This document shows positions 959-15,581 of a DNA stretch of 64,000 nucleotides, in pieces; within the stretch, counting starts at the first letter, position 1; each line of letters opens with the position of its first letter. Under the pieces are notes generated by a model. The model was not told where the DNA came from, ran no database searches, and was given only the letters and a program-made list of their open reading frames with translations. A program made the position numbers and the translations under genes. Source of the DNA: an uncultured delta proteobacterium (GTDB taxonomy: Bacteria; Myxococcota_A; Polyangia; Haliangiales; Haliangiaceae); assembly GCA_963848295.1 (NCBI GenBank), contig CAWKDB010000002.1:608001-672000 (forward strand), read 5' to 3'.

Positions 959-1501
959 GTGCGCACCCTCGCCCTCGCCGTCGTCGCGTCCCTCGCAACC
1001 ACCGCCGGCGCGAGCCCGTTCACCGTGGGTGTCGCGGGCGGGTGGACGCAAAGCGCGAGTGACTCGAGCTCGGCCCCGAACGACGATTGGCAGCTGTGGG
1101 CCCGGCTCCATGTCTGGCGCGCCCTGTCGACCCAGCTCGAGTGGCACAAGCTAGACAACGACAACGCGGTCGCGATGGGCACGGTCAACGCGATCGCGAT
1201 CCTCGACCTGATGCACGGCCAGTGGGTCCCGTTCGTGCTCGCCGGCGTCGGCGTCGATTACGGAGAGAACACGAGCGCGGCGGGCAATGGCGCGGACGTC
1301 GCGGCCGGCGTCGGGTTCGAGTACCGCAGCCCGGGCGGCGTCGTCGTCGGGATCGATGCGCGGATCGGCACGCGCGCGGTCAGCCAACCGGAATACGCTA
1401 CCCCGATATGCAACTTCTGCGCGTTCCAGGCGCCGCCCGACCTCGCGCTGGCCAACGGTGAATACCGCGCGGTCCGGCTCGCGGTCGGGCTTCACTTCTA
1501 G
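959..1501 (+). CDS. Secreted outer-membrane beta-barrel-like protein, paralog 1
   Basis: GTG start, signal peptide, alternating beta-strand pattern, C-terminal ...AVGLHF; homologous to 1601-2149. Confidence 0.7.
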   Translation: MRTLALAVVASLATTAGASPFTVGVAGGWTQSASDSSSAPNDDWQLWARLHVWRALSTQLEWHKLDNDNAVAMGTVNAIAILDLMHGQWVPFVLAGVGVDYGENTSAAGNGADVAAGVGFEYRSPGGVVVGIDARIGTRAVSQPEYATPICNFCAFQAPPDLALANGEYRAVRLAVGLHF

Positions 1502-1527
1502 TCAGCGGTCGTTCGCACGTCTAGCGC

Positions 1528-1588
1528 TCACGGATTTCTGAGAGCGCGCGACCCGATCCCCGCGGCTTACGCCGGCACGAGTCGTGCT
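1528..1588 (+). promoter_or_regulatory. Putative sigma54 promoter (1573-1588) with upstream activator-like box (1528-1544), copy 2
   Basis: CGGCACGAGTCGTGCT fits GG-N10-GC; identical TCACGGATTTCTGAGAG box 45 nt upstream. Confidence 0.65.
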
Positions 1589-1600
1589 GAGTGCGACTCC

Positions 1601-2149
1601 ATGATCGGGACAAGACTCCTCGCTTCGACGGTCGCTGCGGTGTCCGCCGTCTCGGCGGTCGCCACCGCGAGCCCTTTCTCCGCCGGCGCCAGCATCGGCC
1701 GCGCGCAGAGCGCTGATGACTCCGACAACACCGACCCGAACACGACGTGGGGCCTGTGGGGTCGGATGCGCGTGGCCGGGCTCTTGTCGACTCAGGTCGA
1801 GCTCTACAAATACGACAACGTCGACGGTGCGGCGATGGGCACGTTGAACGGCGTCGCGATCGTCGACTTGAGACGGCACGGGCACTTGATTCCGATCGCG
1901 CTCGCCGGGGTCGGCGTCGACTGGACCAACGGCGACCAGAGCGGGTTCGACGTCGCGGCCGGCGTCGGGCTCGAATATCGGGCCGATGGCGGGTTCATCG
2001 TCGGGCTCGACGCGCGGCTCGGCACGCGCTCGGTGTCGTCGCCGGATGAGCCGACCGGCTGTAACGAGTGTCTGTACGCCGTCGCGCCAACCGACTTCCG
2101 CGGCGGCGAGTACCGCGCGGTCCGCCTCGCGGTCGGCGTGCATTTCTGA
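1601..2149 (+). CDS. Secreted outer-membrane beta-barrel-like protein, paralog 2
   Basis: Signal peptide, beta-strand pattern, C-terminal ...AVGVHF; shares ASPF, AMGT.N..AI.DL, DVAAGVG.EYR, GEYRAVRLAVG with paralog 1. Confidence 0.72.
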   Translation: MIGTRLLASTVAAVSAVSAVATASPFSAGASIGRAQSADDSDNTDPNTTWGLWGRMRVAGLLSTQVELYKYDNVDGAAMGTLNGVAIVDLRRHGHLIPIALAGVGVDWTNGDQSGFDVAAGVGLEYRADGGFIVGLDARLGTRSVSSPDEPTGCNECLYAVAPTDFRGGEYRAVRLAVGVHF

Positions 2150-2177
2150 TCCGGCGCGCATGTCAGCGCTTTCGCGT

Positions 2178-2213
2178 CGGCCACGGTAACGGCAACGGCG
2201 TCGGCTCCGGCGC
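2178..2213. repeat. Short CGG(C/T)NN hexamer tandem array (6 units)
   Basis: cggcca cggtaa cggcaa cggcgt cggctc cggcgc. Confidence 0.6.
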
Positions 2214-2259
2214 GTTTGAGTCCGGTAAAGGGTGCCGGAATCATCGTCGGCGGGCGCGC

Positions 2260-2580
2260 TCACCGCGTGAGCCGGAACAGCATCGCGCGCACGCGATCGA
2301 GCGGCGCCTCGATCGCGGCGAAGTCGTCGGCGGAGATGTAGCCGCGCGCCTTCGCGATGAGCAGCGCCGCGGACAGCTCGCGCGCGCTGCCGAAGGCGCG
2401 GCGGAACATGTCGGGCCGGTCGAGCCCCGCGCGCGCGCTCGCCTCGGCGATGTTGAGAGCCACGCTCTCGGCGGCGCGGCCGATCTCGTCGGCGAGCGAC
2501 TTCCGGCGCGAGCGCAGTTTCGGCTCGACCGGGGCGAGCTGTTCGAGGACGGTGAGCGACTGGGCGAGGACGTCGAGCAT
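2260..2580 (-). CDS. Four-helix-bundle protein (23S rRNA IVP / TIGR02436 / Avd-like family), copy A
   Basis: 106 aa; family motif [12 protein letters not shown]...R....F..A.GSA.E; paralog of 3464-3787. Confidence 0.85.
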
Positions 2581-2609
2581 GGCGTGGCCTTTCGTGGATG
2601 AGCGGACGC

Positions 2610-2794
2610 CCGATTCGCCGGGGCCGTCTCGCCCGTCGCGCCGCACTCGCGCCGGCGCCGTGACGAGCGCGGGCACCCAACACCGCACACCCCGTCGATC
2701 CAACTCTGCGGCGGTGCTTCGCATGCGTCGGTAGTCCCGGCGCTCGGCGCGGCGCTGGCGCGAAGCGGCGCAGGGCGACGGCCCCGGCGATCGG
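2610..2794 (-). ncRNA. Candidate structured RNA / long hairpin in the 5' leader of four-helix-bundle gene A
   Basis: Extended imperfect inverted repeat; core homologous to 3246-3442 with compensatory changes in the stems. Confidence 0.55.
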
Positions 2795-2817
2795 AAGCCG
2801 CGAGGCGCGAAAGGTGG

Positions 2818-3219
2818 CGGCGTCGGCCTCGGCCTCGGCCTCGGCATCGGCCTCGGCGACGGCTGCGGCTCCGGCTGCGGCGTCGGCTGCGGCTCCGGCT
2901 TCCGCACCGGCTTCGGCTGCGGCGTCGGCTGCGGCTCCGGCTTCCGCACCGGCTGCGGCTGCGGCTTCGGCTGCGGCTCCGGCTTCCGCACCGGCTTCGG
3001 CTGCGGCTTCGGCTGCGGCTCCGGCTTCCGCACCGGCTTCGGCGTCGGCTGCGGCTCCGGCTTCCGCACCGGCTGCGGCTGCGGCTTCGGCTGCGGCTCC
3101 GGCTTCCGCACCGGCTGCGGCTGCGGCTTCGGCTGCGGCTCCGGCTTCCGCACCGGCTGCGGCTGCGGCTTCGGCTTCGGCTCCGGCTTCCGCACCGGCT
3201 TCGGCTTCGGCGTCGGCTT
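2818..3219. repeat. CGGCNN hexamer array (67 units) with higher-order 42-nt periodicity
   Basis: 402 nt in 6-nt phase; variant CCGCAC unit recurs at 2902, 2944, 2986, 3028, 3064, 3106, 3148, 3190. Confidence 0.95.
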
Positions 3220-3245
3220 TAGACCCTCGATCCTCCTTCGCTCTC

Positions 3246-3442
3246 GCCGATGGGCGGAACGTCTCTCTCGCCCTGCGCCGCTTCGCGCTTGTCCCGCGCC
3301 GAGCGCCGAGTGCGCCGGCGCCTGCGATCGATCGCCGCGGAGTTGATCGGCCGGCGATTGCGGTGGTCAGCGCCCGCGCTCGTCACGGGACCCGCGCGAG
3401 TGCGGCGCGACGGGCGAGAGAGAGACGTTCCTACCCATCGGC
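3246..3442 (+). ncRNA. Candidate structured RNA / long hairpin in the 5' leader of four-helix-bundle gene B
   Basis: GCCGATGGG..GGAACGTCTCTCTCGCCC pairs with GGGCGAGAGAGAGACGTTCC..CCCATCGGC; inner stems shared with 2610-2794; followed by GGAGGA RBS and ATG 3464. Confidence 0.55.
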
Positions 3443-3463
3443 CACTCACTTCGGAGGATCTTC

Positions 3464-3787
3464 ATGTCGTTCTACGCCCTCGACTTCGCCCTCGCCGTCC
3501 TGCACCAGCTCGCCCCGATCGAGGCCAAGGTCCGCCGCGCGCGCAAGTCACTCGCCGACGAGATCGTCCGCGCCGGCGAGAGCGTCGCGCTCAACCTCAG
3601 CGAGGGCCGCATGCGTGTCGGGCTCGATCGCCCCGACTTCTATCGCCGCGCCGCCGGCAGCGCGAGCGAGCTCACGACGGCGCTGCTCATCGCCCAGGCG
3701 CGCGGCATCATCTCCGCCGAGGACTTCGCCGCGGTCGACGAGCCGCTCGATCACGTCCGCGCGATCCTCTGGCGCCTCACCCACTAG
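3464..3787 (+). CDS. Four-helix-bundle protein (23S rRNA IVP / TIGR02436 / Avd-like family), copy B
   Basis: 107 aa; RAGESVALNLSEG..R....FY..A.GSASE; strong RBS GGAGGA. Confidence 0.87.
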   Translation: MSFYALDFALAVLHQLAPIEAKVRRARKSLADEIVRAGESVALNLSEGRMRVGLDRPDFYRRAAGSASELTTALLIAQARGIISAEDFAAVDEPLDHVRAILWRLTH

Positions 3788-3943
3788 CGTTCGCGCCGGC
3801 CACACTGACTTGGCACCTGTCGCGCGAAGCAAACGACAGCCCGAAGAGCGGTGCACGGCGTAAGCGGGGTGTCAGCACCAGAAGGCCGCGCTGTCTACAG
3901 GATCGCGACGTATGGGTCAGCGATGTCTTGAGCACTTCCGAAG

Positions 3944-4224
3944 CGGTTGCGGCTTCGGCTTCGGCGGCGGCGACGGCTTCGGCCACGGCTACGGCTTCGG
4001 CGGCGGCGGCGACGGCTTCGGCCACGGCTACGGCCACGGCTTCGGCCTCGGCTTCGGCCACGGCTTCGGCTTCGGCGGCGGCGGCGACGGCTTCGGCCAC
4101 GGCTACGGCTTCGGCCACGGCTTCGGCTACGGCTTCGGCTGCGGCTACGGCTTCGGCTTCGGCTTCGGCTGCGGCTTCGGCTTCGGCGACCGCGACGGCT
4201 TGCGGCTTCGGCGACGGCTTCGGC
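3944..4224. repeat. CGGCNN hexamer array (CGGCTT/CGGCCA/CGGCTA/CGGCGG mix)
   Basis: Directly visible tandem units between gene B and the kinase stop codon. Confidence 0.95.
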
Positions 4225-4233
4225 AGAGTCGGG

Positions 4234-5808
<1,575 letters not shown>

Positions 5809-6324: not shown

Positions 6325-7450
6325 TTACCTCCCGCCGACCACCCAAGCGATCCCACACGCCACCACGCCGGCCACGACGTACCACCACCAGGTGATTCGG
6401 CTGGCCACGAGCTTGTGAGCCGGACCATCGAAATCAGCGATCGGCAGCGCGGTCGCGGGCACGCGAATGCCGATGCGGGATCGCAGGATCGCGTGCTGGC
6501 CGGTGACCGGGATCGACGGCGGGATCGTCGTCGTCGTCAGTCCGATCCGCGCGGCGAGCCGGCTCGCGACGTGCGAGGTCTCGGTCATCGCCGGATCGCC
6601 CTCTTTTTGCGGGTCGAACTCTTTGAACGTCGGAAGATCGTCATCGCCGTCGGGTGGGCGCAGCCGATCGCCACTGACCTCGGCGACGACCGCGGTGATG
6701 TTGTCGTTGCCACCGGCCGCGCGCGCCGCGGTGACGAGCAGCATGACCGCCTCGGCGACCGTGTGCGGCTCGGACATCAGCAGGTTGATCGCCGGATCGC
6801 CGACCAGGCCGTGCAAGCCGTCGCTGCACAGCAAGATCCGGTCGCCGCGCGCGGAGCTCGAGGATCGACAGCGACGGATCGACGTCCTCGCCGACCCCGA
6901 GCGCCTGCAAGATCGCGTTGCCGGCCCCCGCGGCCTCGAGCGGGCTGTGCCCCGCGGCGACGAGGGCCTGGGCGAGCGACTGATCGCGCGTGACCTGCAC
7001 CAGCACGCCGGACCGCAACACGTACGCCCGGGAGTCGCCGATCGTGGCGATGATCAGCTTGGTGCCGACGACGCCGGCCGCGGACAACGTCGTCCCCATG
7101 CCGCGCAGGCCGGGCTCGCGCCTGCCGACCGCGTGGACGTCGTGGTTCGCGACTCGTGCAGCGCGGCGCAGCAAGCGCGCGAACACCTCGGCGTCGCGCG
7201 TCGCGGGGGTCGCGCGCATCTCGCGCCACACCGACTTTGCCGCGAGCTCGGACGCGACCTCGCCGCCCACGACGCCCCCCATGCCGTCGCACACGACGAG
7301 CAGCGGGCCGCGCACGGCTTCGGAGTGCCACGACCCGAGCATCTCGACGACGCGATCGCCATCGAGGTCACCGACCAGGAGATGATCCTCGTTGTGCTCG
7401 CGGACCTCACCGACATCGGTGGCTCCCGCGACCGCGACCCGCAGCGTCAC
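6325..7450 (-). CDS. PP2C/PPM-family Ser/Thr phosphatase (frameshift near 6850)
   Basis: TDVG..REHNED, VCDGMGG, MGTT, GDSRAY in one frame; LCSDGL, GGNDNIT in the next. Confidence 0.88.
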
Positions 7451-8724
7451 CGCAGCTCGATCCGCAACAACTGATCGCCGAGCCGGATGTGATCGCCGTG
7501 CTTGAGCGCGGTTGGCACTTGAACGCGAACGAACGTGCCGTTCGAGCTCCCGAGGTCGGTCAGCTGACAGGTCTTGCCGTTCCAGTTGAGCGCGGCGTGG
7601 CGGCGCGACATGAATGCGTCGTCGCGATAGACGATGTCGCCGTCTTCGCGGCCGAGGACGATCTCCTCGCCGAACAGGTGCCGGACGTCGCGGTGACCGC
7701 CGGACGGGATGATCTGCAGCACGCGGCCCCACGGCTCGCGCGGGGGCGATCCGAACAGCGCGACGCCATGGCGGATCAGCGGATGCACGGTGCGCTCCTC
7801 GGCGGAGACCCGCTCGAACCGCAACACCTCGCGGCCGACGAGGAACGTCGCGCCATCGACGAGCTCGACCGGGACATCGGCCTTGCGGAACACGCCGTTC
7901 AACGTGTCGAGCGGATGCACGCGCACGACGCCGTCGGCTCGCTCGATCCGCGCGTGCTGGCGCGCGAGGAACCGATCGTCGTCGAACGCGATGTCGGCGC
8001 CGTTGCGGCCGAGCACGGTGTCGTCGGAGACGAGCGCGAAGCGTTGGCCGTCACTGCCGTCGCGGTTGACGAGCACGGCGCTGCCCCACTGTCCGACGGC
8101 CGGACCGGGCGCGATCGCCGGCCCCGACGTGCGCACGGCCGCGGCGGCGCGCGGCTGATCCGGCTGCGCGAGCGTGCCGGCATGAGGATCGATGCCGCCG
8201 GAAACCGCGACGAGCTGCGCCGGCGGCGGCGATGCCGATGGCGTGCGCGGTCGCGCGGCGGTGCCACCCGGATCGGTCGGAGCGATCCCCTGCATGTGCA
8301 GGCCGCACTGCTGGCAATACGCGAACCCGACCGGCGTCGACGTGCCGCAGCGCGGGCACGTGATCATCGCGTTGCTCGACGGCCGCGGCGTTGCGACGAC
8401 GACCGGCGGCGGTCCGATCGCGGGCGCCGACATCGGTGGTGGTGGCATCAACGGCGCACCGCCCTGGATCATCGGCGAGCTGCCCAGCGGCGCGCCCATC
8501 ATCGGAGCGCCGCCGGCCATGGCAGGTGATCCGGGCGTCGTCTGGCCCAGGCTCGTGCCACACGATCGGCAGAACTTCATGCCGAGCGGGTTCTCGCCGC
8601 GACACACCGAGCAGATCACGGGCAACCCCGAGGCTGCGACGGGAGTCTGCGCCAGAGCACTGCCGCAGTTGAGGCAGAACGACGACCCAGGTGGGCTTTC
8701 GTGGCCACAGACAGAACAGCGCAT
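7447..8724 (-). CDS. Zinc-ribbon repeat + double FHA-domain protein
   Basis: Three CxxC..CxxC ribbons; two FHA domains (LGR..ARQHA..NGVF; LGR..SRRHA..DLGSSNGT). Confidence 0.9.
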   Translation of the reverse strand: MRCSVCGHESPPGSSFCLNCGSALAQTPVAASGLPVICSVCRGENPLGMKFCRSCGTSLGQTTPGSPAMAGGAPMMGAPLGSSPMIQGGAPLMPPPPMSAPAIGPPPVVVATPRPSSNAMITCPRCGTSTPVGFAYCQQCGLHMQGIAPTDPGGTAARPRTPSASPPPAQLVAVSGGIDPHAGTLAQPDQPRAAAAVRTSGPAIAPGPAVGQWGSAVLVNRDGSDGQRFALVSDDTVLGRNGADIAFDDDRFLARQHARIERADGVVRVHPLDTLNGVFRKADVPVELVDGATFLVGREVLRFERVSAEERTVHPLIRHGVALFGSPPREPWGRVLQIIPSGGHRDVRHLFGEEIVLGREDGDIVYRDDAFMSRRHAALNWNGKTCQLTDLGSSNGTFVRVQVPTALKHGDHIRLGDQLLRIELR

Positions 8725-15383: not shown

Positions 15384-15559
15384 AATTGATCAATTGATCA
15401 ATTGATCAACAGGCAGCAGGCAACAGGCAATGCCGGCAGATTTGCACGCTGGAGTTGTCCCGCTTGCGCGCTCTGATCTGAACTTCCGTAAAACGCCCGC
15501 CGCGCAGCGGCGCACCTGCATTGCCTGTTGCCTGTCGCCTGTTGATCCATTGATCAATT
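15384..15559. repeat. Inverted-repeat element built from AATTGATC and CAGGCAA tandem units
   Basis: Arms 15392-15433 and 15518-15559 are reverse complements at 39/42 positions; 84-nt spacer. Confidence 0.85.
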
Positions 15560-15581
15560 TCCCCGAGCAACCCACACGATC

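Follow-up and report, generated by a model that had tools for sequence, protein, structure and literature searches.

An apparently undescribed mobile cassette of four-helix-bundle genes, long hairpins and CGGCNN arrays in a genome of the Haliangiaceae

The window analysed here is a stretch of 64,000 nucleotides (nt) from an uncultured soil delta proteobacterium of the Haliangiaceae (assembly GCA_963848295.1, contig CAWKDB010000002.1, positions 608,001-672,000 of the forward strand); coordinates below are window positions unless a contig is named. Directly past the stop codon of an outer-membrane beta-barrel gene (1601..2149) it holds a head-to-head cassette, which brings together two PF05635 genes, two hairpins of ~190 nt and three CGGCNN arrays at one locus. 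We consider the cassette to be a real, mobile and apparently undescribed element. The locus is composed as follows.

1601..2149, + strand: host outer-membrane beta-barrel gene, left flank (PF13505, 29.7 bits)
2178..2210, + strand: short left CGGNNN array of 4-6 units (period-6 repeat scan: 2178-2199, 3.7 copies)
2205..2259, - strand: conserved segment 3' of gene A with a small hairpin motif (82-90% identity to 7 other copies, genome search)
2260..2580, - strand: four-helix-bundle gene A, 106 amino acids (PF05635/TIGR02436; ratio of non-synonymous to synonymous substitution rates, dN/dS, 0.12 among 9 intact copies)
2608..2800, strand unassigned: hairpin A (model match 2615-2795)
2818..3219, + strand: middle non-coding array of 67 hexamers with a fixed CGGC and two free final bases (period-6 scan, 67.0 copies)
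3246..3443, strand unassigned: hairpin B (model match 3251-3431)
3464..3787, + strand: four-helix-bundle gene B, 107 amino acids (PF05635/TIGR02436; dN/dS 0.16 among 10 copies)
3788..3945, + strand: segment 3' of gene B, partly conserved (73-75% matches in 4 other copies, none elsewhere in the genome)
3950..4224, + strand: right CGGCNN array of ~47 units with frame-breaking steps (period-6 scan, 46.7 copies)
4234..5808, - strand: host Ser/Thr kinase gene, right flank, convergent (PF00069)

This layout of two four-helix-bundle genes, two hairpins and three arrays was described in an earlier note on this DNA, and repeat scanning, profile searches and folding all bear it out. The same note saw a duplicated hairpin-plus-gene unit flanked on both sides by arrays. 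Units A and B are indeed inverted copies of each other (genes 78% identical over 310 nt, leaders 80% over 152 nt), but the arrays lie outside the inversion, as all three read CGGCNN on one strand, and the same polarity is found in nine other copies of the cassette. Arrays are present on both sides of each unit, the left one amounting to only 4-6 repeats. Hairpin B ends just 5' of the ribosome-binding site of gene B. No rRNA match was found in 1500-5000, where the flanks are protein genes, and the search for sigma-70 promoters and terminators returned none. A 311-amino-acid frame running from the middle array into gene A was rejected as coding, since it is not kept among the copies (open frames of 195-368 amino acids).

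The assignment of both genes to PF05635/TIGR02436, also made earlier, holds well above the curated cut-offs (PF05635: 51.5 bits for A and 45.2 bits for B, cut-off 33.8; TIGR02436: 47.7 and 45.6 bits, cut-off 24). Protein B is predicted to fold as an antiparallel four-helix bundle (predicted local distance difference test score, pLDDT, 96.5). The best structural matches of this model are 2GSC and 2RLD (template modelling score, TM, 0.77-0.88), and comparison with Avd gives TM 0.81-0.85 (0.85 for 4DWL) at 10-11% sequence identity. Both 2GSC and 2RLD are five-chain entries, and the Xanthomonas homologue is a toroidal pentamer (PMC4990558); from these three we infer that the A and B proteins may form homopentameric rings. 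Purifying selection acts on the cassette proteins, with dN/dS of 0.16 among 10 B genes and 0.12 among nine intact A genes.

The head-to-head pair occurs ten times in this genome (G000), once with a truncated A unit, and is accompanied by three related units (one related pair, one single unit and one remnant). Cassette units account for 22 of the 31 PF05635 matches in the genome. The leader-plus-gene cores of the nine A and nine B units compared are 91-97.5% identical and diverge in a star-like pattern. Distances among the A units are uncorrelated with those among the B units (Mantel rho -0.01), and this lack of a common pattern suggests that A and B units have been shuffled between copies.

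Seven of the ten copies were compared with relatives, the other three lying outside the comparison. The closest genome, G104 (90% complete, 1410 contigs, flanks mostly ~86-92% identical), lacks the cassette at five of its six assembled sites, listed here by contig and position of the copy in this genome.

After the beta-barrel gene of the window: empty, a 12-nt gap followed by a different convergent gene
C10:1502371: empty, no gap
C2:1181147: empty, overlapping stop codons
C10:4854666: empty, 41 nt; also empty in G063, 29 nt
C2:1462672: empty, a sensor-kinase gene in the cassette's place
C10:511651: occupied, a decayed A unit plus 2.3 kb of other genes

The kinase junction is likewise free of the cassette in nine of ten relatives' loci, where the kinase gene abuts a different convergent gene. 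Empty orthologous loci, sought also between the beta-barrel genes and the kinase, were thus found, and the locus varies among relatives. Since the closest relative has no cassette at five of six assembled sites, the cassette can be considered mobile. Cassettes sit in gaps at the ends of host genes. No transposase, terminal inverted repeat or consistent target duplication was found at the ten cassettes (nine junction pairs examined). A small dispersed element with catalysis supplied in trans, the second idea of the earlier note, is the best reading. Targeting of TAG stop codons was considered and rejected (9 of 16 junction stops, counted by eye, versus a background of 35%, p 0.07), and one alignment query returned no relative of the cassette among viral contigs.

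The genes that now flank the window cassette were not neighbours ancestrally. The beta-barrel gene of G104 faces a homologue of the right flank of another copy, C11:442400, and in nine of ten relatives' loci the kinase faces the left flank of that same copy. This arrangement would be explained by two insertions followed by a reciprocal exchange of flanks between the window and C11:442400 copies, either real or made by assembly. A replicative origin of the exchange was rejected, as neither of the two copies is the one most similar to the other (92.1% and 92.7%).

Hairpins A and B fold with z-scores of -7.3 to -8.0, and none of 200 shuffled sequences folds as well (coding controls, z -0.9 to +1.7). 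Rfam 15 gave no match at gathering score, the two weak hits in the window stretch scoring far under the threshold, and none at the hairpins of loci L176, L194 and L209. The core pattern of the hairpin, two motifs at fixed spacing, is present in 52 of 91 genomes of the genus, against 3 matches in total in controls; this and the other genus tallies (Y1 transposase genes, some locus counts) include the unpublished genomes G010 and G057, on which nothing else stated here depends. Named records with the gene or the hairpin come mostly from Kofleriaceae and Haliangiales, with single assemblies of Polyangiaceae and Sandaracinaceae, the range beyond the genus being that of sequence patterns alone. Pattern matches outside the myxobacteria were discarded, as nearly all are due to chance and have no score with the RNA model.

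For the alignment, 113 pattern matches were reduced to 105 by arm pairing, to 74 by removal of near-duplicates and finally to 62, when 11 chance-like sequences and one reverse duplicate were dropped. With kinship ignored, the covariation score of these 62 sequences is 0.402, compared with 0.138 +/- 0.008 in shuffled and 0.08-0.11 in slid alignments, so the covariation sought in the leader following the earlier note is there. Both sides change in 17 of 28 predicted pairs; an alignment fitted to the model gives 27 of 33 pairs, a figure that leans on the model and includes about two dozen wrong-strand matches. The basal stem swaps in whole blocks, and the bulges, the internal mismatch motif and the apical motif are constant.

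At L147, L165, L177 and L267, beside copies without four-helix genes, the outer hairpin arm is duplicated in tandem (57-90 nt). Such upstream arm duplications do not mark a fixed cut site: they occur in 12 of 107 copies and their end points are scattered.

In this genome all 23 strong hairpin matches precede four-helix genes. The 128 distinct copies found outside it are more varied: 78 go with four-helix genes, 16 with DUF222-like genes and 6 with GxxExxY (PDDEXK_3) genes, no cargo was recognised at 20, and 8 are cut short. The hairpin stands in front of the GxxExxY gene in all 6 copies, and either in front of (10) or behind (6) the DUF222-like gene. For the DUF222 label, one of four proteins scanned passed the Pfam cut-off, two fell just under it and that of L176 had no Pfam match; the L176 protein carries what we take to be an HNH-type motif, recognised by eye. 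L176 illustrates how such loci are built in general, the order being host stop codon, tandem repeats, hairpin, gene, inverted hairpin, tandem repeats and host stop codon; in general, units are arranged singly, tail to tail or head to head. Both DUF222-like genes of this genome lack the hairpin, and one query found no GxxExxY gene in it. With 22 of the 128 outside copies facing GxxExxY or DUF222-like genes and 20 without recognised cargo, the hairpin is not cognate to the four-helix protein. It is uncatalogued, covaries strongly and connects three gene families of which little is understood.

It is the arrays that go with the four-helix protein, rather than the hairpin. Among units with enough flank, hexamer arrays outside the hairpin were found at 40 of 57 four-helix units, 0 of 14 DUF222-like units, 0 of 4 GxxExxY units and 2 of 19 units without cargo (Fisher p 5e-8, overstated since kin are not independent). 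Within one genome, G023, both four-helix units have arrays versus none of five other units, and four-helix homologues that lack this hairpin keep their arrays (L010, L014, L017, L019). Other members of the family thus carry leader and arrays, as the earlier note supposed. The ten middle arrays of this genome are 112-409 nt long and differ in composition between copies; CGGC is kept in 414-439 of their 441 tiles, and the last two positions take all four bases. Chance does not account for the association: cassettes cover 0.4% of the genome, yet 26 of the 51 arrays with at least 15 units are found no more than 600 nt from one, and 20 of the remaining 25 were classed as coding linkers. Solo arrays could not be taken for footprints of lost cassettes, as most cassette-distant arrays are Gly-X or Pro-X linkers and what looked like a solo array in G104 proved to be a neighbour gene's coding tail. 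No non-coding array was found at empty sites, which implies that arrays arrive with or after the insertion and does not support the proposal that the element inserts into CGGCNN arrays.

Two further repeats were seen near these loci. At L036 (G090:C758) the kinase gene is followed by a solitary tandem array of 11-nt units that takes up the gap, which measures 0-60 nt in other relatives, and at C10:1111600-1112200 of this genome a unit of ~130 nt is repeated in tandem after a single four-helix unit and its array.

Isolated mismatches in the stem indicate which strand folds. On the gene strand the 62 sequences contain 112 C.T, 73 A.C, 20 C.C and 12 G.T mismatches, and the antisense strand converts the C.T, A.C and C.C mismatches into stable G.A, G.T and G.G. 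A.C outnumbers G.T in 44 of the 62 sequences and the reverse is true in 4; in the variable basal stem the counts are 20 and 2. The antisense strand folds lower in 52 of 62 sequences as RNA and in 58 as DNA. The folded strand is therefore best described as probably antisense to the gene, and a mismatch spectrum of this kind argues against the hairpin being an mRNA leader. The near-pure Watson-Crick nature of the block changes leans to DNA rather than RNA.

Of the known systems, REP and REPIN elements (repetitive extragenic palindromic sequences and their composites) with their Y1 transposases come closest. As described in PMC3116915 and PMC8266576, they are likewise intergenic and non-autonomous, with compensatory changes, conserved mismatches, strand asymmetry and neither terminal repeats nor target duplication; Y1 genes are abundant in this genus. 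Unlike them, the hairpin described here is ~190 nt long, leads a gene, is bordered by tandem repeats and lacks a conserved GTAG at its foot (beyond the stem, no column is conserved among the 62 sequences). Its copies number in the tens, not the hundreds, and the local Y1 genes are not flanked by it. Overall, the cassette lacks defining features of 23S rRNA intervening sequences, diversity-generating retroelements (DGRs), REP/REPIN elements and miniature inverted-repeat transposable elements (MITEs), and would work most like a large gene-carrying REPIN.

We lean, on balance, towards a selfish unit of modular build, whose hairpin would serve an enzyme acting in trans as a single-strand signal for mobility and whose protein would bind the repeats in cis. 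The basic unit would consist of a short-repeat array, a ~190-nt hairpin and a four-helix-bundle gene, with two diverged units travelling head to head in this case. A little more probably than not, the hairpin would act as a single strand, most likely of DNA and antisense to the gene, presenting its conserved bulges and mismatches to a mobilising enzyme that is produced elsewhere, in the manner of REP hairpins and Y1 (HUH) transposases. Recognition of REP hairpins by Y1 transposases is confined to one strand and depends on a bulge (PMC8266576).

The second half of this proposal concerns the protein, and we would give it an even chance: a pentameric ring would help its own unit to spread by binding, in cis, single strands of the repeats with their fixed core and free spacer. 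TRAP-type ring proteins bind spaced short repeats. A fixed CGGC followed by two free bases is the pattern expected of such a binding ladder; the likeness extends to the ring oligomer and the fixed-core, free-spacer repeat, whereas the folds are unrelated, so TRAP serves as an analogy only. Arrays would change by slippage after insertion, with selection holding the CGGC core.

As to the mobilising enzyme, one of the resident RAYT-like Y1 transposases can be named as a tentative candidate, with DUF222/HNH-type, GxxExxY and DDE enzymes as alternatives. Y1 genes are present in 88 of 91 genomes of the genus. They were found in 4 of 106 outer flanks (136 kb in total), where roughly less than one would be expected from ~9 genes per 8.5 Mb, but mobile elements cluster. 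PF01548 (IS110/IS1111 DEDD recombinase) has no match in this genome, which is 85% complete. The Y1 genes of this genome are located at C10:3806926, C2:330154, C10:3657655, C2:1374309, C10:1439500, C10:4550601, C10:261800, C10:3445968 and C10:3040575. Six of the nine have a common upstream hairpin-like motif of ~100 nt, the end of which resembles the stretch after the DUF222-like gene at C10:2181200.

A number of observations weigh against this proposal. All nine RAYT-like Y1 genes have an upstream motif different from the hairpin, with no hairpin match; genomes G102, G084 and G095 carry hairpins and no Y1 match; and no enzyme tied to the hairpin was found. The strand call is statistical and made on related sequences: counted per alignment column over the stem, the excess shrinks to 20 versus 10, hairpin A of the window folds better as sense RNA (-144.5 versus -137.9 for antisense) and hairpin B is nearly symmetric as DNA. 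Template switching may produce compensatory blocks even where structure is not selected for. The hairpin of four-helix units stops immediately ahead of the ribosome-binding site, like a regulatory leader, and the cargo sample is enriched for four-helix loci, its DUF222-like cases coming from few genomes. Both proteins are near-neutral (lysine plus arginine to aspartate plus glutamate 17/14 in A and 14/14 in B), and the barrel of Avd is positively charged (10.1101/2023.10.23.563531), which weakens a simple copy of the Avd mechanism. Identity between any two copies does not exceed 97.5%, which leaves no pair close enough to indicate present activity. A circle model, with left and right arrays as halves of one array, was rejected, as their likeness is no better than chance (p 0.35); the comparison of middle and right arrays, one of three tests made, gave p 0.007.

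The headline idea of the earlier note, a module of a protein and its cognate hairpin RNA, survives best among the alternatives. The protein would bind the hairpin in its own mRNA leader, for autoregulation or as a small ribonucleoprotein, and mobility would be incidental. The position of the hairpin speaks for this: all 23 hairpins here and 78 of 128 elsewhere lie directly before a four-helix gene, with a few bases between the stem and the ribosome-binding site. The protein resembles Avd in its fold (TM 0.85), and the Avd pentamer contacts an Avd-binding RNA element (10.1101/2023.10.23.563531); the better fold of hairpin A as sense RNA agrees with it too. Yet the invariant hairpin motifs are identical before unrelated genes, the close homologues at L010, L014, L017 and L019 have arrays without this hairpin, and the mismatches of the family favour the antisense strand. 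Weakened by the other cargo, the antisense bias and the arrays tracking the protein, the leader model seems unlikely to us.

The intervening sequences of 23S rRNA that bear an open reading frame (ORF; S23p/IVP; PMC4990558) are similar to the cassette in their protein family, selfish patchy distribution and stem structure. The cassette, however, lies outside rRNA and has many chromosomal copies. The ORF of an intervening sequence sits within the loop of a stem formed by the ends of the element, whereas here the gene stands beside the hairpin; no complementary ends enclose it, and the arrays on either side of each gene are direct.

The hairpin could instead be promoter or regulatory DNA of selfish genes, for instance a single-strand promoter with a sigma-54-like site that is complete only on the folded strand, and the strand that folds would be the template. 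Sigma-54 sites are spaced as GG-N10-GC, with the second G normally invariant. In the gene-proximal arm, 55 of 62 sequences have exactly 10 nt between G[T/G] and an invariant GC, and in the partner arm this distance varies (10, 11 and 12 nt in 25, 34 and 3 sequences). The second G is T in most copies, however. DUF222-like genes begin 330-660 nt away, behind AT-rich promoter-like stretches, and hairpins are also found without genes or at the 3' end of DUF222-like genes, pointing inwards (L176). A promoter role is accordingly one that we regard as rather unlikely.

The preferred reading, a unit moved through its hairpin, has to be weighed also against transport by a DDE transposase, with units as passengers of non-autonomous insertion sequences and hairpins and arrays as mere cargo. 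The L136 unit of a relative does have an inverted end on either side, each bordered externally by CTAG, and the same end motif is present at L013, L050 and L170. A second four-helix family of this genome has 14 inverted-end copies, 10 of them with CTAG five bases outside, and CTAG stands at both junctions of the cassette copy C2:1181147, as against a single CTAG in G104. None of this extends to the ten cassettes as a group: they have neither terminal inverted repeats nor a consistent target duplication (nine junction pairs), the features of a MITE being absent from the cassettes of this genome and inverted ends having been seen in one relative's unit, L136. Their outer ends are variable arrays, in which the L136-type end motif was not found. 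We consider DDE transposition of the units quite improbable.

The second family (C2:271083, C2:797188, C2:436753, C10:2647165, C10:3467581, C10:3175866, C10:4056361 and others) has inverted ends, inverted hexamer repeats and many broken copies. It represents an inverted-arm design, in contrast to the window cassette with its direct polar arrays and a separate long non-repetitive hairpin common to nuclease genes. A group II intron (L003) is inserted three times at the same point of its inverted end, at C2:797062, C10:2116766 and C10:3467986.

It is very improbable that the Avd-like ring recruits a group II intron reverse transcriptase, with repeated error-prone copying from a short template writing the CGGCNN arrays. 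Structural likeness to Avd, three reverse transcriptase matches above cut-off in the genome, GCCG-NN in the invariant stem motif and in the apical motif, and the arrival of arrays with the insertion are consistent with this model. Against it, the two reverse transcriptases examined belong to group II introns (RVT_1 with GIIM and/or Rfam intron domains), those near four-helix genes lie in ends of the second family, and no template/variable repeat pair is seen. The arrays come in either polarity (22 versus 17), have the blocks and higher-order periods typical of slippage, and consist of the same hexamers that fill coding linkers. A true DGR shares with the cassette the four-helix fold of Avd (4DWL, 8UB7-8UBE). 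At none of the copies, by contrast, is there a reverse transcriptase of DGR type, a template repeat or a target gene, and the cassette proteins are near-neutral. None of four reverse transcriptase matches adjoins a cassette (L001 and L003 are group II introns), and no direct template/variable repeat pair differing at adenines was found in 1500-5000.

A local duplication or assembly artefact without function is already refuted for the element itself and has a practically negligible chance, since copies differ by 2.5-9%, purifying selection acts on the genes and independent genomes carry the unit as well, even if the flank exchange could be misassembly through a repeat and no public contig from four runs bridged the cassette junctions.

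Three other features of the window were recorded. The beta-barrel genes at 959-1501 and 1601-2149 are tandem paralogues with similar upstream sequences. A PP2C-like phosphatase frame at 6325-7732, annotated by eye, is broken near 6834-6870 by a frameshift or a sequence error. A gene-less hairpin at 15384-15560, with inverted arms of 7-8-nt tandem repeats, lies between two convergent stop codons.

No published description of the cassette or the hairpin was found in the literature searched, most subscription papers being outside its scope. The hairpin family, its covariation, its use with other cargo, the strand bias and the separation of the hairpin from the arrays are new here. PF05635 is a large family with solved structures, in which function is known only for Avd; here it meets two candidate ligands that comparison can separate, as the repeats track the protein and the hairpin does not. 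Cassette copies mark a reciprocal exchange of flanking genes and may also reshape these genomes. We think it somewhat doubtful that the cassette represents an undescribed class of mobile elements, one which would combine an exchangeable, long, strand-specific hairpin end serving several cargoes (four-helix bundle, GxxExxY nuclease and DUF222/HNH-type genes) with an Avd-like ring recognising and propagating telomere-like arrays, through a single-stranded intermediate and with no known transposase family. If true, such a two-module class would supply a function for the orphan PF05635 family and account for its repeats.

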